This document shows, in pieces, positions 7,474 to 35,418 of a stretch of DNA of 43,803 nt. A program made the position numbers and the translations under genes. The stretch is from positions 1-43,803 of the forward strand of contig CAYVJW010000002.1 of assembly GCA_964451885.1 (NCBI GenBank), read 5' to 3'. Positions within the stretch are counted from its first letter, which is position 1. The number at the start of each line of letters is the position of its first letter. The DNA comes from an uncultured Candidatus Peribacteria bacterium (GTDB taxonomy: Bacteria; Patescibacteriota; Gracilibacteria; UBA4473). Under the pieces are notes generated by a model. It was not told the origin of the DNA, did not search any database, and was given only the letters and a program-made list of their open reading frames with translations.

Positions 7474-8085
7474 ATGTTACAACTCGAAGAAAATACAACT
7501 CAAGCAGAAGGCCTTACCGCATTTATTGCCAAAAAAAAGACAACAGGAGTTGGTCTTCCGGATTCTGGAGGATTTGAAGTGATCAGCTTTAACGATTCAG
7601 AAGATCCGGAGCAGGAGGCTGAGGAGTTAGGACAACTTTCCGGACTTGTAGCGGCTATTGCGGCGGCAAAAGAAAGAAATACATGGATATTAACGATCGA
7701 AGAGCAAGAGAGGTTGGAATACCTTGAAGAAATGCTTGAAAAAAGAGAATTGGAGGCTTTGGGAATTTTAAAAAATTTAATAGCCTTACGAGATGAAACC
7801 TCTAATAATCTTTCTTCGGCAAGAAGCGCTGAAATAAGAAATGAATCTACTAGTCTCATACAGAAAATAGAAGTTATGACAACCGTAGCAGAAATAGAAG
7901 CCAATGCGATTCAAGCGGTTATACAAGCTATAAAGGAAAGAGAAAAAGCAAAAGCCCGGGTTGCAGAACAAACTTTCGTCCAGGTTCAAGAATTGATCCA
8001 AAGAATTTCCTCAAGCTTAATAAATGACGAGCGAGAAGTGAGAGAAGAAGTAGATGGACTTGCGTTAGAATTGGCGGCGGCGTAG
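7474..8085 (+). CDS. acidic coiled-coil hypothetical protein (203 aa)
   Basis: Long ORF with an ATG start. Glu/Ala/Leu/Ile-rich heptad-like composition. No catalytic motif. Confidence 0.55.
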   Translation: MLQLEENTTQAEGLTAFIAKKKTTGVGLPDSGGFEVISFNDSEDPEQEAEELGQLSGLVAAIAAAKERNTWILTIEEQERLEYLEEMLEKRELEALGILKNLIALRDETSNNLSSARSAEIRNESTSLIQKIEVMTTVAEIEANAIQAVIQAIKEREKAKARVAEQTFVQVQELIQRISSSLINDEREVREEVDGLALELAAA

Positions 8086-8157
8086 AAAATAATTGATAAT
8101 TGTTAATTGTCATTGTACCCTGAGCTTGCCGAATGGGATAATTGATAATTGATTCTG
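8086..8157 (+). repeat. 72-nt leader module: heptamer words (ataattg x2, ttaattg, tcattgt), a G+C-rich core at 8117-8137, then ataattg x2. It is homologous to 29196-29267.
   Basis: Aligned by eye with the ruvB leader. Shared blocks are ATTGATAATTG, AATTG, ACC, TGAGCTT, CGAA.GG and ATAATTGATT.TGATG. Confidence 0.7.
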
Positions 8158-9282
8158 ATGCGTTCCCTTTTTACTTCTGAATCCGTCACAGAAGGCCACC
8201 CCGACAAGGTAGCCGATCAAATTTCCGACAGCGTTCTGGATGCTATTTTAAAAGAAGATATTCATGGCCGGGTAGCCTGCGAAGTTTTGGTAAAAACAGG
8301 CTTAGTGGTTATTGCCGGGGAAATCACCACCAAGTGCTATGTAGATATTCCAAAAGTAGCCCGGGCAAAAATTTGTGAGATTGGCTATGACTCGGACGAA
8401 CTAGGATTCGACGGAAAAGCCTGTGCAGTTCTTACTACTATCGACGAGCAATCTCCGGATATTGCTCAAGGAGTGGATGAAAACAAAGGACACAAACAAG
8501 GGGCCGGCGACCAAGGAATGATGTTTGGGTATGCGTCCAATGAAACACCTGAACTCATGCCAATTTCTATCACAATGGCTCATAGCCTCGCAAAGCGTTT
8601 AGCGGAGGTAAGAAAAAAAAGCATTATTCCTTATCTCCGACCGGACGGGAAAACACAGGCCACTTTTGAATATGAAAACGGCAAGCCGATGAGAGCTCAT
8701 ACTTTGTTAATTTCGGCCCAACATGCTCCGGAAGCGGCACGGCCTCAAATTCAAAAAGATATTACGGAACATGTATTAAAGCCGGTCTTGGGCAAGTGGA
8801 TGGATAAAAATACCATTATTCACATAAATCCAACAGGAAGATTTGTGATCGGTGGGCCCAAAGGAGATAGCGGACTTACCGGAAGAAAAACTATAGTTGA
8901 TACATACGGAGGTATGGCCAGGAACGGAGGGGGGTGTTTTTCTGGAAAAGATCCGTCAAAAGTCGATCGTTCAGGCGCTTATATTGCCCGGCATATTGCA
9001 AAAAATTTGGTTGCAAACGAATACAGCACTAAATGCGAAGTGCAGATATCCTATGCTATCGGGATAGCCGAGCCGGTTTCGATTTTTGTGGAAACATTTG
9101 GGACAGGTACGAAAAGCACGAAAGAGCTAGAGAAAATTATTCAAAAAAATTTTCCACTTACTCCAAAAGAGATTATTGAATATTTGGAACTCCTTCGCCC
9201 TATTTATAGTCCATTGGCAGCATACGGTCATTTTGGGAGGTCGGAGTTGGGTTTGCCTTGGGAAAGGGTTGTAAAGATTTGA
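8158..9282 (+). CDS. metK: S-adenosylmethionine synthetase
   Basis: [44 protein letters not shown] motifs. Confidence 0.95.
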
Positions 9283-9344
9283 CAAATCCTTTATCAGAAC
9301 TACAATAATCAAGCTCTGTTTTAACTTCTTAAACATAATTAAAA

Positions 9345-9911
9345 ATAAAAGGTCCATTTCGAGGCAGTCGAAGAAGAGGGTATTTTCAACCTTCCAAAAA
9401 GCTTCATCGCACAAATCATCAAATTAGGGCAATTAAAGTAAGGCTGGTTGATGAAAAAGGAGGGTTGATTGGAATTGTCAGCATTGAGGAGGCGCTTAGT
9501 ATTGCGAAAGAGAAGGAAGTGGATTTAGTAGAAATTTCTCCCAAAGCAGATCCTCCCGTATGCAAAGTGATTGACTACGGAAAAATGATTTACGCTCAGA
9601 AGAAAAGGGAACAGAAAGCCAAAAAATTAAACAAAGCAAGTGAAGTAAAAGGGGTGCGACTAACTTTTCGGATCGGACCGGGAGATTTGGAGCGCCAACA
9701 AAAAACAGCAAAGGACTTTCTTGAAAAAGGGCATCCAATCCGAATTCAGTTAATTATGAAAGGGAGGGAAAAGACACATAAAGACCTGGCATATGATAAA
9801 TTAAATAAATTCATTAATTCTCTAAAAGAAGTAGGCACACTTGATCAACCACCAAGAGGGGCTGGCCATCAAATCATTGCCATGATGAGACCGGGGCAGG
9901 GGGAGAAGTAA
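9345..9911 (+). CDS. infC: translation initiation factor IF-3. The start is non-canonical and uncertain: ATA at 9345 is proposed, while the track ORF begins at TTG 9465.
   Basis: The frame is open back to the stop at 9339-9341 and encodes HQIRAIKVRLVDEKGGLIGIVS, the conserved IF3 N-domain. There is no in-frame ATG, GTG or TTG upstream of 9465. Confidence 0.8.
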   Translation: MKGPFRGSRRRGYFQPSKKLHRTNHQIRAIKVRLVDEKGGLIGIVSIEEALSIAKEKEVDLVEISPKADPPVCKVIDYGKMIYAQKKREQKAKKLNKASEVKGVRLTFRIGPGDLERQQKTAKDFLEKGHPIRIQLIMKGREKTHKDLAYDKLNKFINSLKEVGTLDQPPRGAGHQIIAMMRPGQGEK

Positions 9912-9970
9912 CAACATATAGTAGCAAGGAAAAATACATTAATACTAAAATACTTAATACGAATAATTAG

Positions 9971-10162
9971 ATGAAGCAAAAGACTCATTCCGGCGCCAAA
10001 AAACGAACCAAGATTACAGGAACCGGAAAAGTGATGTTTCAGAAGGCTTGTAAAAATCATCTTCTCAGTTCGAAATCGAAGCGGCAGAAAAAATCGTGCC
10101 GATTAGGAGCTCCTGCTCCAGAAGGCTTAAAAAAAACACTCTCAAGACTTCTTAAAATATAG
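9971..10162 (+). CDS. rpmI: 50S ribosomal protein L35
   Basis: [21 protein letters not shown] is a typical L35 N-terminus. It sits in the infC-rpmI-rplT context. Confidence 0.9.
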
Positions 10163-10206
10163 AACTGAGTTTGTAGATGGTAGAACTTAGAAGAATACAG
10201 AATCTT

Positions 10207-10241
10207 TTCTAAGTTCTAAGCTCTAAGTTCTAAGCTCTAAT
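10207..10241 (+). repeat. tandem heptamer array (ttctaag, ttctaag, ctctaag, ttctaag, ctctaat) in the rplT leader
   Basis: Read directly. 10182-10192 (agaacttagaa) is the perfect complement of 10207-10217. Confidence 0.85.
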
Positions 10242-10251
10242 CCCCATTATC

Positions 10252-10611
10252 ATGACACGAGTTACAGGCGGATCTGCGGCCCACATGCGGCATAAAAAAG
10301 TCCGAAAAGCCACCAAAGGTTATCGAGGAAAAAGGCATTCAACTTTTCGGCTTGGAATGCAAGCGATGCTGAAAGCAGGGATTAATGCTTATGTCGGAAG
10401 AAAACAGAAAAAAAGAGATTTCCGTCGGTTGTGGATAGCAAGAATCTCAGCGGCAATTAGGCAACAGGAAGGATTTAGGTATTCCGAAATTAAAAATTTA
10501 TGGCTTCATGCCAAAATGGAAATTGACCGAAAAAGCCTCTCAGAACTAGCCGTGAATTATCCGAAAGTGTTTGAGAAAGTGTTGGAAATAGCGAAGAAGA
10601 CGAAGAAGTAA
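10252..10611 (+). CDS. rplT: 50S ribosomal protein L20
   Basis: MTRVTGGSAAHMRHKKVRKATKGYRGKR is a typical L20 N-terminus. Confidence 0.95.
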   Translation: MTRVTGGSAAHMRHKKVRKATKGYRGKRHSTFRLGMQAMLKAGINAYVGRKQKKRDFRRLWIARISAAIRQQEGFRYSEIKNLWLHAKMEIDRKSLSELAVNYPKVFEKVLEIAKKTKK

Positions 10612-10635
10612 CTTATTACCTCTAGAGAATTTTGT

Positions 10636-10720
10636 GCTGGAGCACCCTTGCAGGGTGGTCATTTTGTTCAGTTGTGCACAATACAAAATATTTCGGACCA
10701 GCCTACAAGGCTGCTCCAGC
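10636..10720. repeat. REPIN-like palindromic element: two inverted 25-nt G+C-rich arms, each with its own 6-bp hairpin. It is flanked by the 10-bp direct repeat tagagaattt.
   Basis: Arms at 10636-10660 and 10696-20 pair at 22 of 25 positions. Arm hairpins are caccct-tgc-agggtg and cagcct-aca-aggctg. Direct repeats lie at 10623-10632 and 10721-10730. The element sits between the convergent genes rplT and rpsI. Confidence 0.6.
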
Positions 10721-10746
10721 TAGAGAATTTCCGTGTCGGAAATTTC

Positions 10747-11151
10747 CTATCTCTTTGCCCACTGAGGAGCCCTCCTCGCTCTCTTGAGCCCTGGTTTTTT
10801 TCGCTCTTTTTCCCTTGAATCACGAGTGAGTAAGCCATGTTCTTTTAGTTGTGTTCTGGAATTCATGTCTTTTTTTACCAAAACCCTGGAAATTCCCAGG
10901 GCAATTGCATCGGCCTGGGCTCTTTTTCCTCCCCCCGAGACTCGAATCATTAAATCAACATTCTTTTTTTCCGCTAATATCTCAAGAGGACGTAAAACAG
11001 TATAAACCATTTCCTCAGTATCCGCCCAAGATAACAAAGGAGTTTCATTTATGGATACATCACCGCTTCCACTGGGGAACAGCCGAATAGTGGCCCGTGA
11101 AGTCTTTCGTTTGCCGTTAGCGTAGAAGTAGGAACGGTTAGAAGTTGTCAT
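10747..11151 (-). CDS. rpsI: 30S ribosomal protein S9
   Basis: GGGKRAQADAIALGISRVL and a basic C-terminal tail ending in KR. Confidence 0.95.
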   Translation of the reverse strand: MTTSNRSYFYANGKRKTSRATIRLFPSGSGDVSINETPLLSWADTEEMVYTVLRPLEILAEKKNVDLMIRVSGGGKRAQADAIALGISRVLVKKDMNSRTQLKEHGLLTRDSREKERKKPGLKRARRAPQWAKR

Positions 11152-11196
11152 TAATTAAAAATTTAGAAATTTAATATCTGAATTTAATAAATTATT

Positions 11197-11631
11197 TTAT
11201 ATCACACTAAGCGATTCCGGCTTCTGCGCCTCATACGGATTCCCACTTCCTTCTACCAAAAACAGTCGCCGCAACTGTGATTTTCTATGCTTATTTTTAG
11301 GAAGCATTCCGGATACGGCTTTCCTCAGAATAAAAGTCGGATTTTTTTCTCGAACATCCTTGAGAGTACTAACTTTCAAGTGGCCAAGATATCCTGAATG
11401 GCGGTAGTATTTTTTTTGTTCTTCTTTCTTTCCTGAAACATGTATTTTTTCTGCATTCAGCACTACCACATAATCTCCTCCGTCTACATGAGGAGTTAAA
11501 TTTGTCTTCACTTTACCCCGGAGCACATTGACAACAGCAACTGCCAATTTCCCCAAAGTCTTATCGGCTGCATCAATCACAAACCACTTTCTATCCGAAC
11601 TTTTTACATTTTGGCGTAGAGTCGTTTTCAT
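11197..11631 (-). CDS. rplM: 50S ribosomal protein L13
   Basis: RKWFVIDAADKTLGKLA and VVLNAEKI motifs. ATGA start/stop overlap with rplQ. Confidence 0.95.
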   Translation of the reverse strand: MKTTLRQNVKSSDRKWFVIDAADKTLGKLAVAVVNVLRGKVKTNLTPHVDGGDYVVVLNAEKIHVSGKKEEQKKYYRHSGYLGHLKVSTLKDVREKNPTFILRKAVSGMLPKNKHRKSQLRRLFLVEGSGNPYEAQKPESLSVI

Positions 11632-11984
11632 TTGACATTAATTAATTCAATCTGAACAAGCGGAGCATTATCCCCTGGCCGCACCCCAACCCGAACCAGT
11701 CGAGTAAACCCGGAATTATTTTTCTGCTGGAGACTATAATCAAGCGCTCTTTTTGAAGCATCTTTTGTGAAAATTACTTTTTGCAGTTCCCGAACAGCAT
11801 TCATATTGTCTTTTGATTTCACCAGAGAGACTAGTTTATCCACAGCAAGAGCCAAAGCCTTCGCCTTAATTTCTGTTGTCTGAAGTTTTCCGTTAAGAAA
11901 AAGAGAAGTTAAAAGGTTTCGAACAAGCGCTTTCCGGTGGCTTGCCGGTCGATTAAGTCGAAATCCGGTTTTACGATGGCGCAT
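11628..11984 (-). CDS. rplQ: 50S ribosomal protein L17
   Basis: MRHRKTGFRLNRPASHRKALVRNL is a typical L17 N-terminus. Confidence 0.95.
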   Translation of the reverse strand: MRHRKTGFRLNRPASHRKALVRNLLTSLFLNGKLQTTEIKAKALALAVDKLVSLVKSKDNMNAVRELQKVIFTKDASKRALDYSLQQKNNSGFTRLVRVGVRPGDNAPLVQIELINVK

Positions 11985-12031
11985 ATCTTTAGAGTTTAGA
12001 ACTAAGGGGAATGTTTTTTATCTTTTACTGC

Positions 12032-13039
12032 CTACAAAACAGAAGGATTAGGTGAATGAGGAGGTAAGTTATATCCTCTTTCAGCAAGGATTTGCTCAAG
12101 CTCGGTTTTTGCTTTTTGGCCGAATCCTCTTAGTTGAGTTAATTGTGACATAGAAGTTTGCAAGAGTTGCTCAACAGAAGTAATTTTTCCGTTCACTAAG
12201 GCATTTAATGTTCTTTGAGAAAGTCCCAGTATATCGATCGGTGTAAATGGCTCATCAACAGCCGCAACGGCTGCCAATTGTTGTTCTTCTTCTTTTTTCT
12301 TCATAAGGTCGAAGCTAATAGTGAAATCACCGTCTGTATAAGCATCTTCCTTATTAAAAAGAGAAAAATAACTTTCAAGGATGTTTGCCGCTAATTTTAA
12401 AGCTTCCTCCGGATCGATTGCTCCATTTGTTTCAATCTGCATTTCCAACTGATCTAAATCAATCTGTTCTCCTACTCGTGCAGGTACAACCTCATACTTT
12501 ACACGCACGACAGGAGAGAAATTAGCATCAATAAGCATATAGCTGGGATCGTCTTCTTTTACCTGATCTTCATTGGAAACAACCCGGAATCCTATATTTT
12601 TTTCTATTCGCAAATATAACTTTTTCTTAGAATTAGCATCACCGCAAGTAGCGATAATTTGAGAAGGGTCAAGAATTTCAATATCTCCGGAAATATTTAA
12701 ATCCTTTGCGGTTATTTTTCCGTTTTTTACTAGTTGAAAAGTTATTTCCTCTACTCCTTTTGAATGTTTTTTAAGGCGCAGTTTTCGAAGATTAAGAATA
12801 ATATCAAGCACTGATTCTTTTATTCCCGGAATAGTAGAGTATTCATGAGTCCCTTCTTCTATTTTTATCCCGACAACAGCTGTTCCCGGCAGACTTGACA
12901 ATAAAACCCGACGTAAAGCATTTCCAATAGTCATTCCATACCCGGAAGGAAGTGGATTGATAACCAACTTTACAGAATTTTTTCCCAGCGATTCTATTTT
13001 CAACCGGGGAACACCGATGGTTTCATGGAGAATGTGCAT
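12032..13039 (-). CDS. rpoA: DNA-directed RNA polymerase alpha subunit
   Basis: GNALRRVLLSSLPG motif. C-terminal helix-hairpin-helix LGLSQRTLNAL. Position between rpsD and rplQ. Confidence 0.95.
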   Translation of the reverse strand: MHILHETIGVPRLKIESLGKNSVKLVINPLPSGYGMTIGNALRRVLLSSLPGTAVVGIKIEEGTHEYSTIPGIKESVLDIILNLRKLRLKKHSKGVEEITFQLVKNGKITAKDLNISGDIEILDPSQIIATCGDANSKKKLYLRIEKNIGFRVVSNEDQVKEDDPSYMLIDANFSPVVRVKYEVVPARVGEQIDLDQLEMQIETNGAIDPEEALKLAANILESYFSLFNKEDAYTDGDFTISFDLMKKKEEEQQLAAVAAVDEPFTPIDILGLSQRTLNALVNGKITSVEQLLQTSMSQLTQLRGFGQKAKTELEQILAERGYNLPPHSPNPSVL

Positions 13040-13070
13040 GGAGGAGAATGATTAATGAATAATAAGTGTA

Positions 13071-13688
13071 TTATCTGGAGTAAAATTCTACAATTAAGCG
13101 GGACTCGACAATGCTTTCAAAATGATCAGGGGAAGGAAGCTCTTGTACTTCAACTTCAAGTTTTTTGACATCTGCTTTTAACCAGGAAGGTGTATCAAAG
13201 TCAGCTCCTAACTCTTCCCTGTTTCTCTTGAAAACGGGTGAAGATTTCTTATTTTCTTTTATTATGATTTTATCTCCCGGCCGGAGTTGTATAGATGGTA
13301 CATTTACAGGCTGGCCGTTCAAACAAAACAAGCCATGTGAAACAAATTGGCGTGCCTGCATTCTCGTAAGAGCCAGGCCGGAGCGATAAATCACATTATC
13401 CAAACGCCTTTCTAAAAATTGAAATAACATATCTCCGGTAACTCCTTTTGCCCTAACAGCTTGATCAAAATATTTTCGAAACTGCTTTTCAGACAAGCAA
13501 AACATGCGTTTAGCCTTTTGCTTTTCCCGAAGCTGTTTGCCATATTCAGTTGCTTTAACAGCTCTTTTGCCGCCATGCATCCCCGGGACATTTTGGCTGC
13601 GCTGTAAAATCTTTTGGTATTTAGGAGAACCAAAGAGATTAACTCCCTCTCTTCTACATAAACGTGCTTTTGGACCTTTATAGCGCAT
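13071..13688 (-). CDS. rpsD: 30S ribosomal protein S4
   Basis: MRYKGPKARLCRREG N-terminus and the S4 RNA-binding domain RLDNVIYRSGLALTRMQARQFVSHG. Confidence 0.95.
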   Translation of the reverse strand: MRYKGPKARLCRREGVNLFGSPKYQKILQRSQNVPGMHGGKRAVKATEYGKQLREKQKAKRMFCLSEKQFRKYFDQAVRAKGVTGDMLFQFLERRLDNVIYRSGLALTRMQARQFVSHGLFCLNGQPVNVPSIQLRPGDKIIIKENKKSSPVFKRNREELGADFDTPSWLKADVKKLEVEVQELPSPDHFESIVESRLIVEFYSR

Positions 13689-13754
13689 AATGGATTTATA
13701 ATTATTTTAATAAATTATGTCTGATTTCCCCTTTTGTTTTAAGTGTTATGTTTA

Positions 13755-14129
13755 TTAGGTTTTTCGTACTTTCTTAGGGCGACAGCCTCCGTGAGGCAGG
13801 CGGGTGCGTTCTGTAATAGAAGAAATTTCAAGGCCACCGTTTAAAAGCCCTCGAATTGTCTGATCTCTTCCCGGCCCCATGCCCTTGACGAAAACATCAA
13901 CCGACTTCATCCCAAAACTCGCGGCTTTCTCGGCAACTGCCTCAGCAGAAATCTGGCCAGCATATGGAGTCGCTTGCCTGGCCCCTTTAAACCGATTAGC
14001 CCCGGGAGAGCTCCATCCCACAACATTTCCTTCCGGATCTGCTAAAGTTACAATTGTATTATTGTACTTAGCACAAACATATACCCGGCCGGTTTCAAAT
14101 GATTTTCTAACACGTTTATTAGTAGCCAT
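13755..14129 (-). CDS. rpsK: 30S ribosomal protein S11
   Basis: NNTIVTLADPEGNVVGWSS and GPGRDQTIRGL motifs. Confidence 0.95.
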   Translation of the reverse strand: MATNKRVRKSFETGRVYVCAKYNNTIVTLADPEGNVVGWSSPGANRFKGARQATPYAGQISAEAVAEKAASFGMKSVDVFVKGMGPGRDQTIRGLLNGGLEISSITERTRLPHGGCRPKKVRKT

Positions 14130-14210
14130 TGAGATTTAGAACTTAGTTATTAGAGCTTATGAAGACACGGTCTGTAGACTGTGCTTTCCGATTTTTTATT
14201 ATTAAATTTA

Positions 14211-14582
14211 TTATTTAGTTACCTTCTTTTTATTTGCAATAACAGTCTTTTTTCCTCGTTTTGTACGGGCATTGGTTTTTGTATGTTGTCCGCGGACAGG
14301 AAGCTTCCTGCGATGGCGATAGCCTCTGTATGACCCTATTTCTTGAAGCTGGCGAACACTTTGGGATACCTTGCGTCGCAAATCCGACTCCAGAACATAT
14401 TTTGTTAATACGGCTCTTAACACTTCTTCCTGCTCAGGAGTTAGATCTTTTATTCGCACGGATTCATCCATTTTAGCCTTTTTACAGACAACTTTAGCGC
14501 GAGCACTTCCCACCCCGTAAATGTATTGAAGGGAAACGACAAGGCGTTTATCAGAAGGAATCGTAATTCCGGAAACCCGCAT
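14211..14582 (-). CDS. rpsM: 30S ribosomal protein S13. Start placed at the internal ATG at 14582.
   Basis: MRVSGITIPSDKRLVVSLQYIYGVG is the canonical S13 N-terminus. The upstream 24 codons of the track ORF translate the heptamer array. Confidence 0.93.
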   Translation of the reverse strand: MRVSGITIPSDKRLVVSLQYIYGVGSARAKVVCKKAKMDESVRIKDLTPEQEEVLRAVLTKYVLESDLRRKVSQSVRQLQEIGSYRGYRHRRKLPVRGQHTKTNARTKRGKKTVIANKKKVTK

Positions 14583-14617
14583 TTGGATGTTGGATGTTAG
14601 ATGATAAATGTTGGATT
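14583..14617. repeat. tandem heptamer array (ttggatg, ttggatg, ttagatg, ataaatg, ttggatt) abutting the rpsM start
   Basis: Read directly. In mRNA sense the leader reads aatccaa catttat catctaa catccaa catccaa ATG and contains no G. Confidence 0.85.
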
Positions 14618-14673
14618 TAAAACTTAATTTTTTTATTGTTTTTCTCCTGTGCATCTTGACTCTTGCCCCTTGA

Positions 14674-14799
14674 CTACCCTTGTCTCTGTTTATGCTTTCC
14701 TCGCGTAGCGGGGTTCGTGCAGATTACGCGCACCACCCCCTTGCGCCTTATTATCCGGCAATCTCTACAGAAAAGTTTCACAGAAGCCCTCACTTTCAT
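14674..14799 (-). CDS. rpmJ: 50S ribosomal protein L36 (41 aa; below the ORF-track length cutoff)
   Basis: Hand translation gives [41 protein letters not shown]. It lies between infA and rpsM, as in the canonical operon. Confidence 0.9.
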
Positions 14800-14830
14800 T
14801 GTTATTTGATTAATATTTTCCTCCACTTGC

Positions 14831-15061
14831 CTACTTGTAACGGTAGGTAATGCGTCCTTCTTCTAAATTGTAAGGAGAAAGCATTAGTCGGACACGATCC
14901 CCCGGGACAATTTTGATAAAATGGACGCGCATCTTCCCTGACACTCGAGCTCTTACCTGATGTTCCTCAAATCCCTCTGTTGTCAGAGTGACCAGAAACT
15001 GAGATCCGGGAAGCAGCTCAATTACTACTCCCTCTATTTCGAAGTTTTCATCATTTGCCAT
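14831..15061 (-). CDS. infA: translation initiation factor IF-1
   Basis: S1-like fold signature [16 protein letters not shown]...[15 protein letters not shown]. Confidence 0.95.
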
Positions 15062-15173
15062 AAATCACTTTAAAAAGCCGATGAATTATAAAAAACAATT
15101 CACGCTTGTCAACTTTTTACAAAAAAAGTAAGATAGAACGAGAATAAATTCTCAACTCATATACATTTTATTC

Positions 15174-16610
15174 ATGACCATGAAAATTGCAACATCTTCT
15201 AATCCCGCAAAAACAGAGGCTCTTTTTGTTTTTCTTCCACAAAAAAACTGGAAAAAACAGTTCATAGCCCTAGATAAAAAATTGGAAAAAGAAATTACAA
15301 AACGTTTTTCAGATAAAGATTTTAAAGGAGAATTAGGGGAAATATTGCAGCTATTCTCCCCTCTTGCAGCTTCAAAAAAAATATTTCTAGTGGGGAGTGG
15401 GAAATTAAAAGAAAAAATAGACATGCGAAAGGTAGCTGGTTTAGCCATTCGGAAAGCTAAAAAACTTAAAATTTCACAAGTTGCTTTTCTTATTCCGGAA
15501 AGTTTTTGTGTGAAGAGAATTATTTCGGGAGCGATATTGGGCGATTATGAATTCAAAATAGGAGACAGAAGTAAACAATTTTCTCCCAAAAAACTGGAAA
15601 TCATTACAAACCAAGAAATATCGAAAGAAGACTTGCAATCAGAAATTGCTTTGGGAGAAAGCACGAATCTTACCCGAGACCTCATAAACCTCCCTCCCAA
15701 CAAAATGACGCCGAAACTTTTGAGAAAAAAGGCAGAAAAGGAACTTGGAAAGGAAGTAGCGATAGAATCCTATAATAAACAGGATGTCCAAAAATTGAAA
15801 ATGGGAGCCTTGTATGGAGTAGGACAGGGATCTGAAGAAGGGGCGGAATTGATTGTTTTAAAATATAAGGGAGGCAGAAAAGAAGAAAAGCCGCTGGCTA
15901 TTGTCGGGAAAGGAGTGTGTTTTGATTCCGGTGGCTATAACCTGAAACCCACCAACCATATCGAGGACATGAAATCTGACATGTCCGGAGCCGCCACGGT
16001 ACTTGGGATTTTTAAATGGATTGCGGCAACGAAGCCCAAAAAAAACATTGTCGGGGTGATAGGGGCTGTTGAGAATTTGGTATCAGGGAACGCTTTCAAG
16101 CCGGGAGATATCTTGACCGCAATGAACGGCCAAACTATTGAAATCACAAATACAGATGCGGAAGGACGATTGGTATTAGCTGACTGCCTTTATTATACCG
16201 CCACAAAATTAAACCCGGTGGAAATTATTGATATAGCGACATTGACCGGGGCATGCATTGCAGCGTTGGGTATGAAAATTTCAGCGGTAATGGGAAATAA
16301 TAAAAAATTGATTGAGAGAGTAAAAAAAGCAGCTCTGGCGGCAGATGAAAATGTATGGGAATTGCCTGTTAACGATTTTTTCCGGGAAAAGACAAAAGGG
16401 GACATTTCCGACCTGGTAAACTGGACAGCGGGAGTTTCAGCCGGCTCTTCTATGGGGGGGGCGTTTCTGGAAAAGTTTGTGGAAAAAGTTCCCTGGATTC
16501 ATCTGGACGTAGCCGGTACGGCATTTCATGCCAAAGCAGAGGATGAACTATCGCCCAAGGGGGCTACGGGGGTGATGGTGAGGACGCTAAAACGACTTAT
16601 TGAAGAGTGA
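15174..16610 (+). CDS. pepA: leucyl aminopeptidase (M17 family)
   Basis: VGKGVCFDSGGYNLKP, NTDAEGRLVLAD and ATLTGAC motifs. Confidence 0.9.
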   Translation: MTMKIATSSNPAKTEALFVFLPQKNWKKQFIALDKKLEKEITKRFSDKDFKGELGEILQLFSPLAASKKIFLVGSGKLKEKIDMRKVAGLAIRKAKKLKISQVAFLIPESFCVKRIISGAILGDYEFKIGDRSKQFSPKKLEIITNQEISKEDLQSEIALGESTNLTRDLINLPPNKMTPKLLRKKAEKELGKEVAIESYNKQDVQKLKMGALYGVGQGSEEGAELIVLKYKGGRKEEKPLAIVGKGVCFDSGGYNLKPTNHIEDMKSDMSGAATVLGIFKWIAATKPKKNIVGVIGAVENLVSGNAFKPGDILTAMNGQTIEITNTDAEGRLVLADCLYYTATKLNPVEIIDIATLTGACIAALGMKISAVMGNNKKLIERVKKAALAADENVWELPVNDFFREKTKGDISDLVNWTAGVSAGSSMGGAFLEKFVEKVPWIHLDVAGTAFHAKAEDELSPKGATGVMVRTLKRLIEE

Positions 16611-16639
16611 GAATATCAAACCCCTTATTTACAGCACAT

Positions 16640-17380
16640 TTATAAGTCCATTGACTTATCTTTCGAAGTATTATCCAGGTCAATCCCCACTCCTCCCTCA
16701 TCATCCAACACCTTCTCCACGTCTATATCCACCCCTTCTTCTACCGGAATAGTAGCTAATACGGGAGGGAGTGGGGTTTTATCTTCCTGAGGATTATCAC
16801 GGTCGGGAATGCCGTGATCTTTTACATGTGTAAGAACCAGTTGTGATAAGAGATTTTTAAGGGCAGATTCCTCGGTGAAATTCTTATTATTAATGGCTTT
16901 TTCTTTGTAATTTTCAATAATTCTTGAGACTCTGTGAGGGCGGTTTATGTTTAGCACTTCTGTAAGGACTCCTCCAATCTGCATAAATATTATTTTTCCG
17001 TAATTTCCTAAAAAAGATTTAAACCCTATTTTTTCGACCCCCACCTGATCCAGATCAAAAAAATTAATACGGTTTCCCCTTTTACAAAAAAACGTTGGCC
17101 AGTCCACAATCACCAGACCTATGTTTGTCATTACGATACCGTTCATATACCAGTAGAAAAACACTGAAAGCATGCGGAATAAGGCAAAAAGCGCTACGCC
17201 TGCCCAAACAAGAATAAGTCTCTGGGGAAAGAAAAACCAAATCGTCCCCGCCAATGCCCCCCACCCCAAAAGGTGAGTCAACATCTTTCCGGAAGTAAAC
17301 ATAAACGGACACCGAAAGACATGGAGTACAATCTCTTCGTCTTCCAGAAAACTTCCGAATCCCCAATTTTTCCAATGCAT
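16640..17380 (-). CDS. membrane protein with a bacterial PH-like (YdbS/bPH_2-like) region and an acidic C-terminal tail. The ATG at 17380 is preferred over the TTG at 17389.
   Basis: Two TM helices are followed by GIVMTNIGLVIVDW...NINRPHRVSRII. The family assignment is from memory only. Confidence 0.55.
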   Translation of the reverse strand: MHWKNWGFGSFLEDEEIVLHVFRCPFMFTSGKMLTHLLGWGALAGTIWFFFPQRLILVWAGVALFALFRMLSVFFYWYMNGIVMTNIGLVIVDWPTFFCKRGNRINFFDLDQVGVEKIGFKSFLGNYGKIIFMQIGGVLTEVLNINRPHRVSRIIENYKEKAINNKNFTEESALKNLLSQLVLTHVKDHGIPDRDNPQEDKTPLPPVLATIPVEEGVDIDVEKVLDDEGGVGIDLDNTSKDKSMDL

Positions 17381-17386
17381 CGGGTC

Positions 17387-17421
17387 CAATTATCAATTAT
17401 CAATTAATAATTATCAATTTT
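17387..17421. repeat. tandem heptamer array (caattat, caattat, caattaa, taattat, caatttt) abutting the start of ORF 16640-17380
   Basis: Read directly. Its reverse complement, ataattg, is the same word used in the metK leader. Confidence 0.85.
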
Positions 17422-17441
17422 TTTTATTATTCACTGTTTTT

Positions 17442-17581
17442 CCCCCGGCAGAGTCTCCGATGAGGGACTCTGCCGCGGCGAAGCCGAATTATCAACCTTC
17501 CAGGATTATCAACAAAAAGCGGACTTGCTGTAATTTCGCTTCGCGAACGTCGAAGTCCCTAGTCGGAGACTTCGCCGGGGG
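17442..17581. repeat. REPIN-like 140-nt G+C-rich nested palindrome with two inverted hairpin units
   Basis: Hairpin A at 17447-17474 has a 9-bp stem and loop tccgatgagg. Hairpin B at 17551-17574 has a 7-bp stem. A closing stem pairs cccccgg with ccggggg (17442-48 / 17575-81). A middle stem pairs gcgaagc with gcttcgc (17478-84 / 17538-44). Confidence 0.65.
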
Positions 17582-17638
17582 GATATTGCTAATAGAGTTC
17601 GAACTTCACAATCTGTGTTTAGATTTTTTTATCCTTTG

Positions 17639-18709
17639 TCATTTGATAACCCCGCCTCCTAAACAAACAGCCCCCTGATAAAAAACCACCGACTGCCCCG
17701 GAGTGACAGCTCTTTGCGGAGTTTTGAATTTAACTTCTACTTCATCACTTGAAATTTGCTTAACCGCACAAGATTGCGAGCCTTGGCGATAACGAATACG
17801 CGCCTCGCAGAAAAATTTTTCTTTCGGAATCCGGCCACATGTCCAGGTGAGATTAGTGGCTAAAAGAAAAGTTGATAACAATAAATTTTCATCCTGGCTC
17901 ACCATCAACTCATTAGTTTTAAACCGTTTTTCAACCACAAACCATGGGGCATCTCGATAGTCTTTTACCCCACCGACACCCAGTTCTTTTCTCTGTCCGA
18001 TGGTATAAAAACTAAGCCCGATGTGTTTACCGATGATTTGCCTCTTTTGCGTAATAATTTCTCCCGGCTTTTTAGCTAAATATTGCTGAAGAAATTCAGA
18101 ATAAGGACGTTTGCCTATAAAACAAATCCCCGTGGAATCTTTTTTTTCCGCGTTTTTAAAGCCATATTCCTTGGCTAGCTTTCGGACTTCCGGCTTGGTA
18201 AATTTTGCAAGAGGGAAAAGTGATTTTTCGAGTTGTTGTTGGGTTAGCGCATGCAAAAAATATGTTTGGTCTTTATTTTTATCCACCGGAATATGAAGTT
18301 CGAATTGTTCTGTATTTTCGTTAAACACCTTTCTAGCGTAATGTCCAGTAGCAATGAAATCAGCACCTAATTTTTTTGTTTGCTCTAAAAACACTCCGAA
18401 CTTAATAAATTTATTACATAAAATGTCCGGATTCGGCGTGCGGCCAGCTTTATTTTCTTCTAAAAAATACTGAAAAACATGCTTCCGGTATTCTTGAGAA
18501 AAATCAAAAACATAAAACGGAATGTTCAGTTTCGCCGCAACATTACGGGCATCCGCTACATCTTCGGCCGCCATGCAATTTTTATCTTTTTCGTCCCAGT
18601 TTTTGAGGAAAACACCAATGGTTTCATAGCCTTGGTCAAGCAAAAGTTTTGCGGAAACAGAGGAGTCTACCCCCCCGGAAAGGCCGACTATTACTCTTCT
18701 CTTTGTCAT
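17639..18709 (-). CDS. mnmA: tRNA-specific 2-thiouridylase MnmA. Start placed at the internal ATG at 18709.
   Basis: VIVGLSGGVDSS PP-loop motif, and CNKFIKFG, ATGHYAR, DQTYFL motifs. Confidence 0.93.
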   Translation of the reverse strand: MTKRRVIVGLSGGVDSSVSAKLLLDQGYETIGVFLKNWDEKDKNCMAAEDVADARNVAAKLNIPFYVFDFSQEYRKHVFQYFLEENKAGRTPNPDILCNKFIKFGVFLEQTKKLGADFIATGHYARKVFNENTEQFELHIPVDKNKDQTYFLHALTQQQLEKSLFPLAKFTKPEVRKLAKEYGFKNAEKKDSTGICFIGKRPYSEFLQQYLAKKPGEIITQKRQIIGKHIGLSFYTIGQRKELGVGGVKDYRDAPWFVVEKRFKTNELMVSQDENLLLSTFLLATNLTWTCGRIPKEKFFCEARIRYRQGSQSCAVKQISSDEVEVKFKTPQRAVTPGQSVVFYQGAVCLGGGVIK

Positions 18710-18716
18710 AAAGAGT

Positions 18717-18806
18717 TTAAACAAGAAACGGAAGTACCGTTGCCGCCACAAAACCCAAAATAGTAATAAAAGCCGCAATTTTAACGCCGATTTTCTTTTT
18801 ACTCAT
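18717..18806 (-). CDS. possible 29-aa hydrophobic peptide (MSKKKIGVKIAAFITILGFVAATVLPFLV)
   Basis: Hand-translated small ORF between grpE and mnmA. It has one predicted TM helix after a Lys-rich N-terminus. No homology evidence. Confidence 0.3.
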   Translation of the reverse strand: MSKKKIGVKIAAFITILGFVAATVLPFLV

Positions 18807-18829
18807 TATTATTAATCATTATTCATTAC

Positions 18830-19297
18830 TCATTCTGCGCTAGCAGATACCTTCGCCGGCGCAATAACAATTTCACCAAATTTCCATCCCGGCTCCAAAG
18901 TCCGAATGACCGCCCCCTTTCTTCCTTCCTCCGTAAGTAAAACCTCATGCAAACCCGAATCAATATTGTCCCCCTTTTTGGGAGCAATTTTCTGAAACCC
19001 TAATTTTTCCAGCTTCCCGAAAAACTTATCAATCACTTTTATGAGTTCTTTATCTGAAGAATGTTCTTTTCCCAATTGTAATTCAAAAAAATTTGGTAGA
19101 AGCTCTTTCAAAAAATAAGCAATTCCACTCGCGGTCCAATTCTTTTTATTCTCTGATTCTCTTCGTCTTAAATTCTCAAGATCGGCCAAGGCTCGAATCG
19201 CCTTATTTTTTTCTGCTGCTACAGATGCTTCCAGCTCTTTGATATGGGATTTTAGCTTGCCGGAGCAACATGTTTTTTCGTTTTTTTTATTACTCAT
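18830..19297 (-). CDS. grpE: nucleotide exchange factor GrpE
   Basis: Coiled-coil N-terminus with RALADLENLRRR. The C-terminal beta domain contains HEVLL...VIRTLEPGWKFGEIVIAPAKV. Confidence 0.85.
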   Translation of the reverse strand: MSNKKNEKTCCSGKLKSHIKELEASVAAEKNKAIRALADLENLRRRESENKKNWTASGIAYFLKELLPNFFELQLGKEHSSDKELIKVIDKFFGKLEKLGFQKIAPKKGDNIDSGLHEVLLTEEGRKGAVIRTLEPGWKFGEIVIAPAKVSASAE

Positions 19298-19462
19298 TAT
19301 TCATTACTAAGGGTGAGAGATAAAATAACATGTTCAAGTTCGCTCAGATTTGCATTATATAGATTTATAAAAAATTGAGGAATATTGTAATATTGTGAAA
19401 GTTTTTAGAAATTTAGATGATGTGAAGCTGTGATGAAATTGTTCAAGTTATTTTGTCTCGCT

Positions 19463-20092
19463 CTAAAGCCCTAAATCTTTCCTCAACGCTGCCGCTTTCT
19501 CAGCAGCACTTGCCTCCTCTGTTGCCTCTTCTTTCTTCGTCTCAACTGTTTCAATTTCTCGTTCTCTCTCTTGTTTTAAACGATGTACATCATCGGCGAA
19601 TTCTGATTCGAGTTCTGAAAATTTTTGCTTTTCTTCCTCAAAAATAGAAATGAGCTCATTGATTTGTTCAATGCGCAGATGGGGAATAGCATCGATTACT
19701 CGTTGCTTTTCCTCCATAGTCAAGGAAATCGACCCTTCCAGCAAGATGAGGAAATATTCCTCGTCAAACGTAGTGTTTGGATGCGGAGGAATTTTAAATA
19801 CATGCTTGCCCCGGGTCTTAAGCTGACCTACCCGGGCATTCGGATCTTTCGGAATAGGCGGCTTGGGAGGGGGCGGAGGAGTCGGGATGCCTTGAGCCCC
19901 TGGTAGCTGTGCTCCGCCAGCCCCGAGAGGCATGCCTGCCCCCGGATGAGGAAAAGGCGGGAGTGGAGATGCCGGAGGAGGCACTTGTTGATTTTGCGGA
20001 GCCCCTTGCGGAGGCTGTTGACCTTGATTACTATTACCTCCTCCGGGATTTGAAGGATTTGGAGTCGGTGGAGTCGGATTTTGGTCAGCCAT
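19463..20092 (-). CDS. Pro/Gly/Gln-rich hypothetical protein with a helical C-terminal domain. Start placed at the ATG at 20092.
   Basis: MADQNPTPPTPNPSNPGGGNSNQGQQPP... low-complexity N-terminal half. The C-terminal half is FLILLEGSISLTMEEKQRVIDAIPHL... followed by a coiled coil. Confidence 0.55.
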   Translation of the reverse strand: MADQNPTPPTPNPSNPGGGNSNQGQQPPQGAPQNQQVPPPASPLPPFPHPGAGMPLGAGGAQLPGAQGIPTPPPPPKPPIPKDPNARVGQLKTRGKHVFKIPPHPNTTFDEEYFLILLEGSISLTMEEKQRVIDAIPHLRIEQINELISIFEEEKQKFSELESEFADDVHRLKQEREREIETVETKKEEATEEASAAEKAAALRKDLGL

Positions 20093-20163
20093 GTTTTTAT
20101 TCCTAAGATTATAAAGAAATCCCACCTTGTAAAATACAGCTTTACCACCCTTTGTCAACCTTT

Positions 20164-20574
20164 TTAGTTTGTTTTCGGGGACTTAGTAGCAGGTTTAGGA
20201 GCAGCTTCTTTAACAGGGTTTTTATTTTTATCTTCTGGAGGGGCTTTATCGGATTTTGTATCGGTGGAAATATTTACAATCTTAATCTTCGTATGATCCT
20301 GTTTGTGTCCTTTTGTTCGGCGATACCGTTTTCGCGGCTTCATTTTAAAAACACGAATTTTTGGATCTCGACCATGTTCCAAAATCTCAGCTTCCGCAAA
20401 AACATTTTCCAGTATCGGAGCGCCGACTTGAAAATTTGCGCCGTTTTCATCGCTGAGAAGAAGTGTCTCGAGTTTGATTTTTGTGCCGGCTTCGCCGGGA
20501 AGTTTATCAACCTCTAAAACCTCTCCCGTTTTTACGATTTCCTGATGTCCGCCGACTTTTACAATGGCAATCAT
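20164..20574 (-). CDS. rplU: 50S ribosomal protein L21 with a Lys/Pro-rich C-terminal extension
   Basis: MIAIVKVGGHQEIVKTGEVLEVDKL is the canonical L21 N-terminus. Confidence 0.9.
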   Translation of the reverse strand: MIAIVKVGGHQEIVKTGEVLEVDKLPGEAGTKIKLETLLLSDENGANFQVGAPILENVFAEAEILEHGRDPKIRVFKMKPRKRYRRTKGHKQDHTKIKIVNISTDTKSDKAPPEDKNKNPVKEAAPKPATKSPKTN

Positions 20575-20709
20575 GAATATTTAGAATTTATAAGTTTGAA
20601 GCTAGAAGTTTGAATCTTCCGTACAAGTCACCCGCCCATGCGTGACTGAATCTGGACGTTCGAACCTTAGGCTTATACCGTGTTTTGTCAATGCTTTTTC
20701 CAAAAAAAT

Positions 20710-20738
20710 TTGACAATAACGAAATGGTTTTCATAATA
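20710..20738 (+). promoter_or_regulatory. candidate promoter ttgaca-17-ataata upstream of tuf
   Basis: ttgaca at 20710-20715, 17-nt spacer, ataata at 20733-20738. Confidence 0.4.
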
Positions 20739-20770
20739 CGCGGGTATTTCTACTTCTTAATTAAGAAAAG

Positions 20771-21967
20771 ATGGCAGATGCTTTTGTCCGCAACAAGACG
20801 CACGTTAATGTAGGAACCATTGGACATGTTGACCATGGAAAAACCACATTGACGGCAGCAATTACAATCGTTTTATCTAACCGTTTGGGGGATTTGCCGG
20901 CGAATAAGGCCGTGGCATTTGAACAAATCGATAATGCTCCTGAAGAAAAAGAAAGAGGGATTACTATTGCTACTTCGCATCAGGAGTATGAGACTACAAA
21001 CAGGCACTATGCCCACGTGGACTGTCCGGGGCATGCCGATTACGTCAAAAACATGATTACTGGAGCGGCCCAGATGGATGGAGCTATTTTGGTGGTAGCC
21101 GCAACCGACGGTCCGATGCCACAGACAAAGGAGCACATTCTTTTGGCACGCCAGGTGGGTGTTGAAAATATCGTGGTCTTCCTGAATAAATGTGACATGG
21201 TAGACGATGAAGAGATGATTGACCTGGTGGAAATGGAAGTTCGAGAAGAACTTTCCAAGCGGGAATATGACGGAGATAACGCCAAAATTATCCGAGGTTC
21301 AGCTCTTAAAGCACTCGAAGACCCGGCAGGAGAATGGGGCGATAAAATTATGGAATTGATGGACTCTGTAGATGAAGTAATCCCTGAGCCAGTGCGGGAA
21401 GTAGATAAAGATTTCTTGATGTCGATAGAAGATGTATTTTCCATCAAAGGGCGTGGAACGGTTGCTACGGGAAGAGTTGAAGCAGGAATTGTAAAAGTAG
21501 GGGAAGAAGTCGAAATAGTAGGAATAAAAGACACCAGAAAAGTAACGGTGACAGGAGTAGAGATGTTTAAAAAGATGCTTGATGAAGGAAGGGCAGGAGA
21601 TAACATCGGAGCGCTCCTGAGAGGGATTGAAAGAGAAGAGATCGAACGTGGCCAAGTATTGGCAAAACCGGGAACGATCACCCCTCACACGGAATTTGAA
21701 GCCGAAGTTTATATTTTAAAAAAAGAAGAAGGCGGACGCCATACTCCGTTTTTCAAAGGATATAAACCACAGTTCTTCATCCGAACCACAGACGTTACTG
21801 GAGAAATTATCCTTCCGGACGGAGTAGAAATGGTAATGCCCGGAGATAACGCAAAATTTACCGTAAATCTCGGCGCAGCAATCGCCCTAAATGAACAAAC
21901 CAGATTTGCTATCAGGGAAGGAGGAAGAACAGTTGGAGCGGGAGTTGTGACGAAGATATTGAAGTAG
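20771..21967 (+). CDS. tuf: elongation factor Tu
   Basis: [18 protein letters not shown] and NKCD GTPase motifs. Full-length at 398 aa. Confidence 0.97.
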
Positions 21968-26793: not shown

Positions 26794-26799
26794 AGTTGA

Positions 26800-26820
26800 A
26801 AGTTTATAAAGTTTATAAAC
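26800..26820. repeat. nonamer words aaagtttat x2 (+aaa), a 21-nt stretch identical to 32575-32595
   Basis: Read directly. It lies in the DUF4012 gene leader but in the opposite orientation relative to that gene. Confidence 0.8.
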
Positions 26821-26881
26821 TTAATAAAGTTAATCCTTCAACTTTATGAACTTTATTTAATTTTTTTTATCCCTTAAAAAC

Positions 26882-29195: not shown

Positions 29196-29267
29196 TTTTT
29201 CCATTGATAATTGGCAATTGACCGAAGGTCTTGAGCTTTGTCGAAAGGTGATTCATAATTGATTTTG
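29196..29267 (+). repeat. 72-nt leader module homologous to 8086-8157
   Basis: See feature 8086-8157. Both intergenic spacers are exactly 72 nt and end in ataattgatt(c/t)tgATG. Confidence 0.7.
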
Positions 29268-30335: not shown

Positions 30336-30521
30336 GGGTGCCCCTTGTGGGTACCCAATCACAACACAGGGCAACCACAAAAAATACAGGGCAACTACTA
30401 GGGATTGCCCCTACTATTTAAAAATTGCACTGATGCAAGATAGAGACAATGGATCAGCATGGGGAGAGTTAAGAAAACATAGTTTGCGAGCTGCCAGCTT
30501 GGATAGCTGACAGCCTGTGTG

Positions 30522-30701
30522 TTACGAGGCTGTGTTAAGCCTTTTTTTCGGGGATCGGAGCATACAATGGCCAGCGAAAACAGTTCCCGATAACTTCCAG
30601 GAAAATGGATAAGCTCCCAGTGCATCGGTCCAGATGCCGACAAACCCCAATACAATGAGTGCTCCGAGAATCCAAAGTGTTATTCGTCTTTCTATACACA
30701 T
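30522..30701 (-). CDS. possible 59-aa hydrophobic peptide (MCIERRITLWILGALIVLGFVGIWTD...)
   Basis: ORF inside a G+C-rich noncoding island. It has one TM helix. It starts 26 nt after the argS terminator U-run, with no visible promoter or RBS. Confidence 0.2.
   Translation of the reverse strand: MCIERRITLWILGALIVLGFVGIWTDALGAYPFSWKLSGTVFAGHCMLRSPKKRLNTAS
30527..30548 (+). terminator. intrinsic terminator-like hairpin (aggct-gtgtta-agcct + T6) ~200 nt downstream of the ruvB stop
   Basis: 5-bp stem and 6-nt loop, with T-run at 30543-30548. Its 5' arm is shared with the alternative hairpin 30511-30532. Confidence 0.45.
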
Positions 30702-30726
30702 GACATGTACCCCTATTCGATTGTGT

Positions 30727-30761
30727 AAAAAAACAGCAGCCTCGTGTGTAGCAGGGGGCTG
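30727..30761 (-). terminator. argS terminator hairpin followed by U7 on the minus strand
   Basis: The cagcctc / ggggctg stem spans 30737-43 and 30755-61 and includes one G-T pair. The A7 run on the plus strand at 30727-30733 reads as U7 after the hairpin on the minus strand. Confidence 0.5.
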
Positions 30762-30835
30762 TCTTTTCACAACAGTGATTGATAGACCTACAAACTATAG
30801 ATTAGACACTATAACCAAAAAAGCGATTTTGTCAA

Positions 30836-32566: not shown

Positions 32567-32574
32567 CACACAGA

Positions 32575-35359: not shown

Positions 35360-35418
35360 AGCCATTTGAGAAATTAATTCCAGAAAGCAGCTTCTTATAG
35401 TTTTGCATAAAGGAGAAT

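Follow-up and report, generated by a model that had tools for sequence, protein, structure and literature searches.

Tandem heptamer arrays that end directly before start codons in this uncultured Candidatus Peribacteria bacterium are a new lineage for a kind of feature that has already been described. The initial annotation of the window, by which we mean the whole stretch of 43,803 nucleotides analysed here, had held that no feature class covers such arrays at this position; that statement was wrong, as start-adjacent heptamer repeats have been published (PMC4679880, PMC4692102). The array from which the analysis started lies in the leader of rpsM:

14583 to 14617, minus strand: rpsM leader array (TRF; local tandem score S = 12, P ≤ 0.005).

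Read on the minus strand from 14617 to 14583, this array consists of the five 7-nt units AATCCAA, CATTTAT, CATCTAA, CATCCAA and CATCCAA, contains no G and places its last base at position −1 of the ATG at 14582. TRF reported a period of 7 and 4.9 copies at 14583–14616, so that the letters and the program both bear out the original claim of five G-free heptamers running up to the ATG. RNAfold predicted the leader to be unstructured (z = −0.33). The longest ORF spanning rpsM begins at 14654, and the array could in that case be read as a coding N-terminal extension. This was ruled out because the RpsM start is the aligned MR(I/V).. ATG in 22/22 related genomes, among which the sequence upstream is unrelated, and also because repeats of 7 nt do not keep the codon register. 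Between rpmJ (14683–14799) and rpsM, the array thus forms a non-coding leader. It was present in the window and in one related locus (L004), and absent from another (L017) and from most other relatives.

How general such arrays are was assessed at the 41 curated start codons of the window. Leaders were taken as positions −50 to −1 and their local tandem score was tested against 200 dinucleotide shuffles, a score of at least 10 being counted as a clear array. Seven of the 41 leaders (17%, about one in six) contained a clear array, each at P ≤ 0.005 against the shuffles. The period was 7 in four of them (metK, rplT, rpsM and ORF 16640) and 9 in the other three (the DUF4012 gene, argS and the glutamine amidotransferase (GATase) gene). 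None of 702 coding windows reached a score of 10 (maximum 9), indicating depletion from coding sequence. Besides rpsM, the arrays of these strong leaders are:

8089 to 8153, plus strand: two ATAATTG arrays upstream of metK, at 8089–8110 and 8137–8153 (TRF, S = 10).
10207 to 10240, plus strand: rplT leader array, (T/C)TCTAAG in 4.9 copies (TRF, S = 18).
17387 to 17419, minus strand: ATAATTG array upstream of ORF 16640–17380 (TRF, S = 14).
26799 to 26858, minus strand: 9-mer array of the DUF4012 gene, AACTTTATA-type in the sense direction, at 26799–26834, with an inverted partner at 26840–26858 (TRF, S = 18, fold).
32575 to 32615, no strand assigned: 9-mer array AAAGTTTAT in 4.6 copies, in the spacer between argS and the GATase gene (TRF, S = 20 on both sides).

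The rplT array ends 11 nt before the ATG at 10252 and the DUF4012 array 5 nt before its ATG. The autocorrelation check that the initial annotation had called for, run in the window, gave a divided answer: the pooled −40 to −1 leaders peaked at lag 7 (z = 5.0) and lag 14 (z = 3.1), but lag 7 gave only z = 1.9 without the seven strong leaders. The proposed period of 7 is upheld by the pooled peak and by four strong leaders, yet periods of 6, 8 and 9 also occur among the arrays of the window. TRF found period-7 arrays of 2.4–5.3 copies at seven intergenic sites, which beyond rpsM are 8090–8110, 8137–8153, 10207–10240, 17387–17419, 18799–18834 and 19289–19308, together with a weaker period-7 row at 36812–36839. 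That arrays precede many ATGs is true of 7/41 leaders, plus rplU, but not as a general rule, and four arrays (18799–18834, 35282–35367, 8089–8110 and 4161–4190) have no adjoining start. The other leaders and arrays considered are:

4161 to 4190, minus strand: hexamer CTCAAG in five copies, about 60 nt upstream of the likely ileS start, the ATG at 4099 (TRF).
11985 to 12009, minus strand: rplQ leader, ttagttc taaactc taaagat (autocorrelation z = 2.2; tandem score P = 0.10).
14130 to 14165, minus strand: rpsK leader with TTCTAA-type words (P = 0.69, z = 1.3).
18799 to 18834, minus strand: (G/A)TAATGA-type period-7 array that begins at the stop codon of grpE; mnmA starts about 90 nt farther downstream (TRF).
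19289 to 19308, minus strand: GTAATGA-type array of 2.9 copies, overlapping the grpE start at 19297 (TRF).
20575 to 20616, minus strand: rplU leader, a degenerate period-7 array (autocorrelation z = 4.0 at lag 7 and 4.2 at lag 14).
35282 to 35367, minus strand: a pair of 8-mer arrays in inverted orientation, one AAATGGCT-type and one AGCCATTT-type, in the spacer between recA and leuD (TRF, RNAfold).
36419 to 36453, minus strand: recA leader (TRF period 15, 2.5 copies; period 7 not significant).

Individually, the leaders singled out by the initial annotation fared unevenly. TRF and the tandem scores confirmed the ataattg arrays at metK and ORF 16640 and, with period 7, the ttctaag array of rplT. 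The rplU array (attcaaa, cttctag, cttcaaa, cttataa, attctaa), which RNAfold predicted to be unstructured (z = +0.90), is supported on its own by z values of about 4 at both lags. The period-7 signal of rplQ was marginal, and that of rpsK was not significant alone. Neither recA nor rpoA had a significant period of 7 (z ≤ 1.5 for each), TRF giving recA a period of 15. The (a/g)taatga arrays stand in part: TRF does find an array overlapping the grpE start, but the period of that leader reached only z ≤ 1.5, and the array placed at about 18806 has a TRF period of 7 but does not lie beside a start. After the grpE stop, the latter carries TAA/TGA stops in all three frames. At the grpE start, the GTAATGA-type heptamers contain a 4-codon mini-ORF (ATGAATAATGAGTAA) overlapping the ATG. 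The CTCAAG hexamers would encode poly-Ser if ileS began at the TTG at 4207.

The proposal that each gene has its own word was not borne out, because ATAATTG, TTCTAA(G/A), (G/A)TAATGA and AAAGTTTAT recur at different genes, and the same words are reused among leaders and genomes. At least six word families occur within the 44 kb of the window. ATAATTG is found at three to four loci, upstream of metK (twice) and of ORF 16640 (hyp249) and as a partial copy before ruvB; TTCTAA(G/A) is shared by at least three leaders (rplT, rpsK and rplQ), with related words in rplU; and the 9-mer occurs at two loci, 26799–26834 and 32575–32615. We also considered a shared consensus word as a new ribosome-binding motif and rejected it: TCTAA and TAATT are about 2.4-fold enriched, yet each is present in only 8–17 of the 41 leaders. 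In the leaders of relatives, [TC]TCTAA had a frequency of 5.6% versus a background of 2.0%.

Initiation independent of the Shine-Dalgarno (SD) sequence is known from Bacteroidetes, and how start codons are chosen without SD pairing is an open question for that group, many CPR bacteria and organelles. The window brings in a lineage whose anti-SD is degenerate and which repeatedly has heptamer arrays beside its starts. As originally claimed, its starts lack SD motifs: GGAGG (−20 to −4) and GAGG were each found at 0/41 starts and GGAG at 1/41, against a background of 6%, all of them below background. The G content at −20 to −1 was 8–9%. Among orthologous ribosomal protein (r-protein) leaders, SD-like 4-mers were found in 2–3% of Peregrini-like sequences versus 76% of those from Cloacimonadota, and the G fraction at −20 to −1 was 0.08 versus 0.27. 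An alternative SD complementary to the published mutant anti-SD (GGAAG, AGGAA and similar) was absent from the window leaders.

The window is a scaffold from a metagenome, and its RpsD is 60–77% identical to that of Candidatus Peribacteria/Gracilibacteria MAGs (CPR/Patescibacteria), followed by Peribacteraceae and then Cloacimonadota. A search for RpsM homologues returned no relative above 71% identity, so arrays were compared above the species level, and a metagenome scan with RplM found only distant L13 genes (45–58% identity). The 3′ end of 16S rRNA was sought in the window and in 83 comparison loci and was found in none of them; loss of the anti-SD in this host is what its lineage would imply. 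The published 16S 3′ ends of Peregrinibacteria read GAACACTTCCTTA, GAACATTCCCTTA or GATTACCTCTTTT instead of ..CACCTCCTTA and have no CCUCC, and Ca. Peribacter riflensis is SD-scarce, with an SD at 7% of its genes and no conserved CCUCC (PMC10783764). The Peregrinibacteria clade is often without bS21, and CPR bacteria keep a bS1 with three to four S1 domains (PMC9297842). Because the anti-SD is degenerate in the lineage, initiation would proceed without SD pairing. SD loss in Peregrinibacteria is thus already published, and anti-SD-degenerate or SD-poor lineages (Peregrinibacteria, SR1 and Flavobacteriia; PMC10783764) resemble the window in having no SD, G-poor and A/U-rich leaders, and less structure near the AUG. 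They differ in that published accounts of their leaders do not include tandem arrays.

Comparisons were made with two Peregrini-like groups of relatives, with Cloacimonadota as the outgroup. Start-adjacent arrays had a period of 7 in 31/56 cases in Peregrini-like loci versus 0/15 in Cloacimonadota. In the Peregrini-like loci, distances from array to ATG peaked at 0–10 nt; an ORF-opening ATG lay within 20 nt for 34/94 arrays, twice the 17.1 ± 4.0 expected for random placement. The sense strand had less G than C in 25 arrays versus 9 otherwise (p = 0.009). Among orthologous r-protein leaders, those with arrays made up 1.6% in one group of relatives, 6% in the other and 0.6% in the outgroup, and arrays are gained and lost among relatives. 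Leader identity at −25 to −1 was 0.37, versus 0.33 expected from composition and 0.44 at third codon positions, with 0.47 for Cloacimonadota leaders; this near absence of conservation points to a compositional rather than a sequence-specific constraint.

Across the Peregrini-like loci, heptamer arrays stand directly before ATGs, and GC-rich loci have them too, with words of quite another kind. In one such locus, L028, rpsM is preceded by four copies of GCTTACT with four of ACGCAGA ahead of them, and rplF by four copies of CTGCTTA; AATCCCT or AATCCC(C/T) arrays lie directly before starts in both L028 and L030. Others precede the ATGs of rpsM and rpsK in L037 and of rpsD in L063. An apparent high density of arrays in convergent regions, obtained with crude ORF-based classes, was discarded on account of antisense mis-calls in GC-rich genomes. 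Arrays of 9-mers (TCCTCGGAN) also lie directly before rplM in Peribacteraceae (L026, 12245–12282; L037, 12208–12296), with the complementary CCGAAGAAA upstream in L037. They may overlap the 3′ end of rplQ and, because their period is a multiple of 3, may be coding repeats.

These arrays can be compared with known heptamer systems. In marine Beggiatoaceae, TAACTGA heptamer repeats end about 1 nt before starts, mostly without an SD and inside r-protein operons; they are also found in some Cyanobacteria and Bacteroidetes, and S1, Csp or CsrA have been discussed as their binders, with S1 or Csp proposed (MacGregor 2015, PMC4679880). The arrays described here likewise consist of two to six tandem, forward-facing 7-nt units that end a few nucleotides from the start, usually with no SD and with few G, inside r-protein operons, and the 0–10 nt distance peak and lack of SD motifs agree with the position of that system. 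The Beggiatoaceae use one word genome-wide (169 sets) and keep a canonical anti-SD in their 16S rRNA, whereas the 44 kb of the window contain six or more word families, with periods of 6–9 nt, in a lineage with degenerate anti-SD. No tandem TAACTGA was found in the window or the related loci, and the window holds four single copies. The omega leader of tobacco mosaic virus is G-poor, contains direct repeats and enhances translation without an SD, reportedly via S1 in E. coli. Our arrays resemble it as SD-less, G-poor leaders of direct repeats, with no homology between the two; omega differs in being a single viral leader with 8-nt repeats and a (CAA)n tract.

Heptameric repeats of the STRR type in heterocystous cyanobacteria were reportedly described by Mazel in 1990. 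In Nostoc and Xanthomonas, heptamer repeats lie within 50 bp of starts (Rehm 2015, PMC4692102). The GGGAATC and GGGGA(T/C)T repeats of Xanthomonas and Nostoc are on the non-coding strand (PMC4692102), so the mRNA carries AATCCCC. Several heptamer families are scattered over intergenic regions there as they are here, the upstream ones mostly 0–50 bp from an ORF; further likenesses are the AATCCC(C/T) words of L028 and L030 directly before starts, the inverted pairs that form stem-loops, and the fast turnover of length and sequence between relatives. The differences are that the SD is still used in Nostoc and Xanthomonas and that their words are G4-forming on the opposite strand, while the words of the window are mostly AT-rich and its host is a small-genome CPR bacterium. 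We found four marks of STRR-type repeats, namely at least three head-to-tail 7-nt copies, non-coding location, an excess of period 7 and dispersed word families.

On balance, and with some hesitation, we favour the explanation that the arrays are slippage-born, heptamer-biased simple-sequence repeats tolerated in composition-constrained, SD-independent leaders. Slipped-strand duplication inside intergenic leaders would generate STRR-type tandem repeats, mostly heptamers. According to a passage in PMC4692102 that cites Mrazek 2007, heptamers are over-represented among bacterial simple-sequence repeats and polymerase slippage is blamed. SD-free leaders would be bound by composition (very low in G, rich in A/U/C and weakly structured near the AUG), and duplication of a short G-poor word would lengthen the leader while keeping within this constraint; for this reason arrays might be tolerated and persist beside starts. 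Their effect may be mostly passive, as a spacer and single-stranded landing sequence for the 30S subunit and S1, and they would not be a dedicated, obligatory signal. The initial suggestion of a slippage origin fits higher-order repeat units, which point to duplication events; an example is the 14-nt super-unit of rplT, whose copies are 100% identical by TRF. Some observations speak against slippage as the whole explanation. Local slippage alone is insufficient, since single words turn up again at unlinked places and in more than one genome: the window has AAAGTTTAT twice and shares ATAATTG with L004, L028 and L030 share AATCCCT, and L028 has GCTTACT twice. No copy-number polymorphism was seen in six to seven contigs of the same population from other metagenome samples, consensus assemblies that were 99.9–100% identical with no array indel. 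Against a passive role, the rpsM leaders of L037 and L063 share 84% identity, versus 44% at third codon positions, the array being kept far above synonymous sites.

We considered whether the arrays are instead dedicated cis-elements for a periodic single-strand RNA binder (S1 OB-fold domains or cold-shock proteins, with a 6–7 nt footprint), in which the word would set the docking register and the copy number tune translation, as a modular replacement for the SD. The strong preference for period 7, the ending of arrays 0–10 nt from the ATG, the pyrimidine-rich and G-poor sense strand, and the location inside r-protein operons would all suit such a binder, as would the reuse of word families within and between genomes and the conserved rpsM array of L037 and L063. 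The same idea was put forward for the TAACTGA repeats, citing heptamer binding by CspB (PMC4679880), and CPR bacteria retain a suitable bS1 (PMC9297842). A dedicated element, however, would not be expected in only 2–17% of leaders, even among highly expressed r-protein genes, nor with many unrelated words and several periods (6–9); leader sequences overall are hardly conserved, base pairing in hairpins involves a quarter of the arrays, and arrays are found away from starts too. We therefore hold this explanation to be unlikely. A more specific version seems very doubtful to us: in Peregrinibacteria, where the anti-SD is lost and bS21 is often absent, G-poor heptamer arrays would serve as a modular SD substitute with one 7-nt word per OB-fold (S1 or cold-shock) register, copy number setting strength and word families marking co-regulated sets. 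If true, this logic might also explain the heptamer repeats of Beggiatoaceae, Nostoc and Xanthomonas.

Judging from their hexamers, the ATAATTG arrays resemble promoters of apparently leaderless genes. For leaderless mRNAs, the −10 box precedes the ATG by about 7 nt. At metK, a 26-nt spacer separates the two arrays, and a GATAAT hexamer precedes the ATG (8158) by 8 nt; the ORF 16640 array itself reads TTGATA-17-GATAAT (10/12 matches), again ending 8 nt before the ATG. The same geometry is seen upstream of ruvB, which has partial ATAATTG words at about 29203–29220:

29254 to 29267, plus strand: sequence upstream of ruvB, CATAATTGATTTTG (geometry as at metK and ORF 16640).

Thus [G/C]ATAAT lies exactly 8 nt before the ATG at metK (8137–8157), ORF 16640 (17381–17419) and ruvB (29254–29267), and the ATAATTG word is also found at smpB of L004 (about 9100–9120), where GATAAT precedes the ATG by 7 nt. 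A −10-like hexamer 6–9 nt before the ATG is found at these three window genes and about five others, but not at rpsM, rplT or rplU. Across the window and the loci L004 to L025, such hexamers peak 8–9 nt before ATGs, with 47 at 6–9 nt versus about 15 expected; Cloacimonadota have no such peak (6 at 6–9 nt). Because −10-like hexamers sit just before ATGs in this way, a subset of the genes is probably leaderless, which suggests a sizeable class of leaderless genes in the lineage. The likeness to leaderless mRNAs is limited to ATAATTG-type arrays and does not extend to operon-internal ones such as rpsM.

Extended to all arrays, this would make them promoter or operator elements acting at the DNA level, in which AT-rich heptads supply −35 and −10 hexamers at the right spacing and drive leaderless or short-leader transcripts. 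The divergent argS (start 32566, minus strand) and GATase gene (start 32617, plus strand) are consistent with it: the 50 nt between their starts (32567–32616) are mostly array, and since the spacer is so short, each promoter must sit either within the array or in the adjacent gene. A precedent is the ctxAB promoter of Vibrio cholerae, which has heptad TTTTGAT repeats. Most period-7 arrays, however, lie between cistrons of r-protein operons (rpsM, rplT, rpsK and rplQ); the words of GC-rich relatives (GCTTACT, TACTCAC and AATCCCT) cannot be sigma-70 hexamers; and promoter-like sites in 8000–21000 showed no excess over shuffles (28 versus 23.9 ± 6.5). The sense-strand bias also argues for a constraint at the RNA level. 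As an explanation for the arrays in general, we regard promoter function as quite unlikely.

Several arrays fold. For the inverted 8-mer pair between recA and leuD, RNAfold predicted a hairpin about 26 bp long (−50.4 kcal/mol, z = −7.9), and 9/35 start-proximal arrays, about a quarter, lie in strong hairpins (z < −2) through pairing with an upstream inverted array. Examples among relatives are L035 at 7676 (z = −6.8), L028 rplF (z = −4.1) and L037 rplM (z = −4.2), and upstream of the rplT array lies an inverted arm, AGAACTTAGAA (10182–10192), that can pair with it (z = −2.35). A purely single-stranded landing role fits these arrays poorly. The initial idea of unstructured, SD-independent leaders is accordingly upheld by the absence of SD motifs and the unstructured rpsM and rplU leaders, but not by the arrays in hairpins or by their sporadic occurrence. 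Such pairs could be hairpins for RNA processing, stability or termination, for example RNase III sites that leave a short 5′ end by the AUG, with direct arrays as their decayed halves. The recA–leuD fold, the nine start-proximal arrays and the inverted arm at rplT agree with this proposal, but most arrays, those of rpsM, rplU and L028 rpsE among them, lack a partner and come out as unpaired in the predictions, and we consider the proposal highly improbable. No T-run follows the array hairpins at 35282–35367 and 26799–26858, as an intrinsic terminator would have, and a terminator scan of 8000–21000 placed no array hairpin of that stretch among its predictions. Rfam at gathering thresholds gave no match in the window, including the r-protein autoregulatory leaders (Alpha_RBS, L20 leader and others), and at E ≤ 1 only spurious sub-threshold miRNA- and snRNA-like matches, including miRNA-like ones to the recA–leuD hairpin. 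A tRNA scan was empty.

Under the slippage explanation that we favour, the set of arrays is heterogeneous, with G-poor single-stranded arrays in r-protein operons (rpsM, rplT and rplU), AT-rich ATAATTG arrays with −35/−10-like hexamers (metK, ORF 16640 and ruvB) and inverted pairs forming long hairpins (recA–leuD and the DUF4012 leader). If the arrays are passive, they are a useful marker of a purely compositional leader constraint combined with heptamer-biased slippage. If they are functional, convergence across four phyla would point to a general RNA–protein recognition in a 7-nt register. Arrays together with the lack of an SD mislead gene callers, as in the rpsM ORF extended to 14654 and the in-array TTG starts at metK, ruvB and ORF 16640.

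Other observations in the window concern individual genes and spacers. The infC frame (9283–9464) runs upstream past the first ATG/GTG/TTG (..KKLHRTNHQIRAIKVRLVDEKGG..), and the start of IF3 is probably a non-canonical codon, as it is in other bacteria. The word ‘aaaggaggg’ occurs only once in the region, inside the infC coding sequence. At 30336–30835, 500 nt contain no ORF of at least 60 aa on the gene strand and have GC-rich hairpins and repeated ‘cagggcaac’ words; this stretch had no Rfam match, even at E ≤ 1. The 220-nt spacer at 17420–17638 contains two long GC-rich inverted repeats (ggcagagtc.../...gactctgcc and cgaagtccc.../...ggagacttcg); it matched nothing in Rfam and may represent a pair of terminators or a structured RNA that is not annotated. 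The isoleucyl-tRNA synthetase (443–4207) carries an inserted histidine-phosphatase (His_Phos_1) domain, residues 713–853, between its catalytic and anticodon-binding domains.
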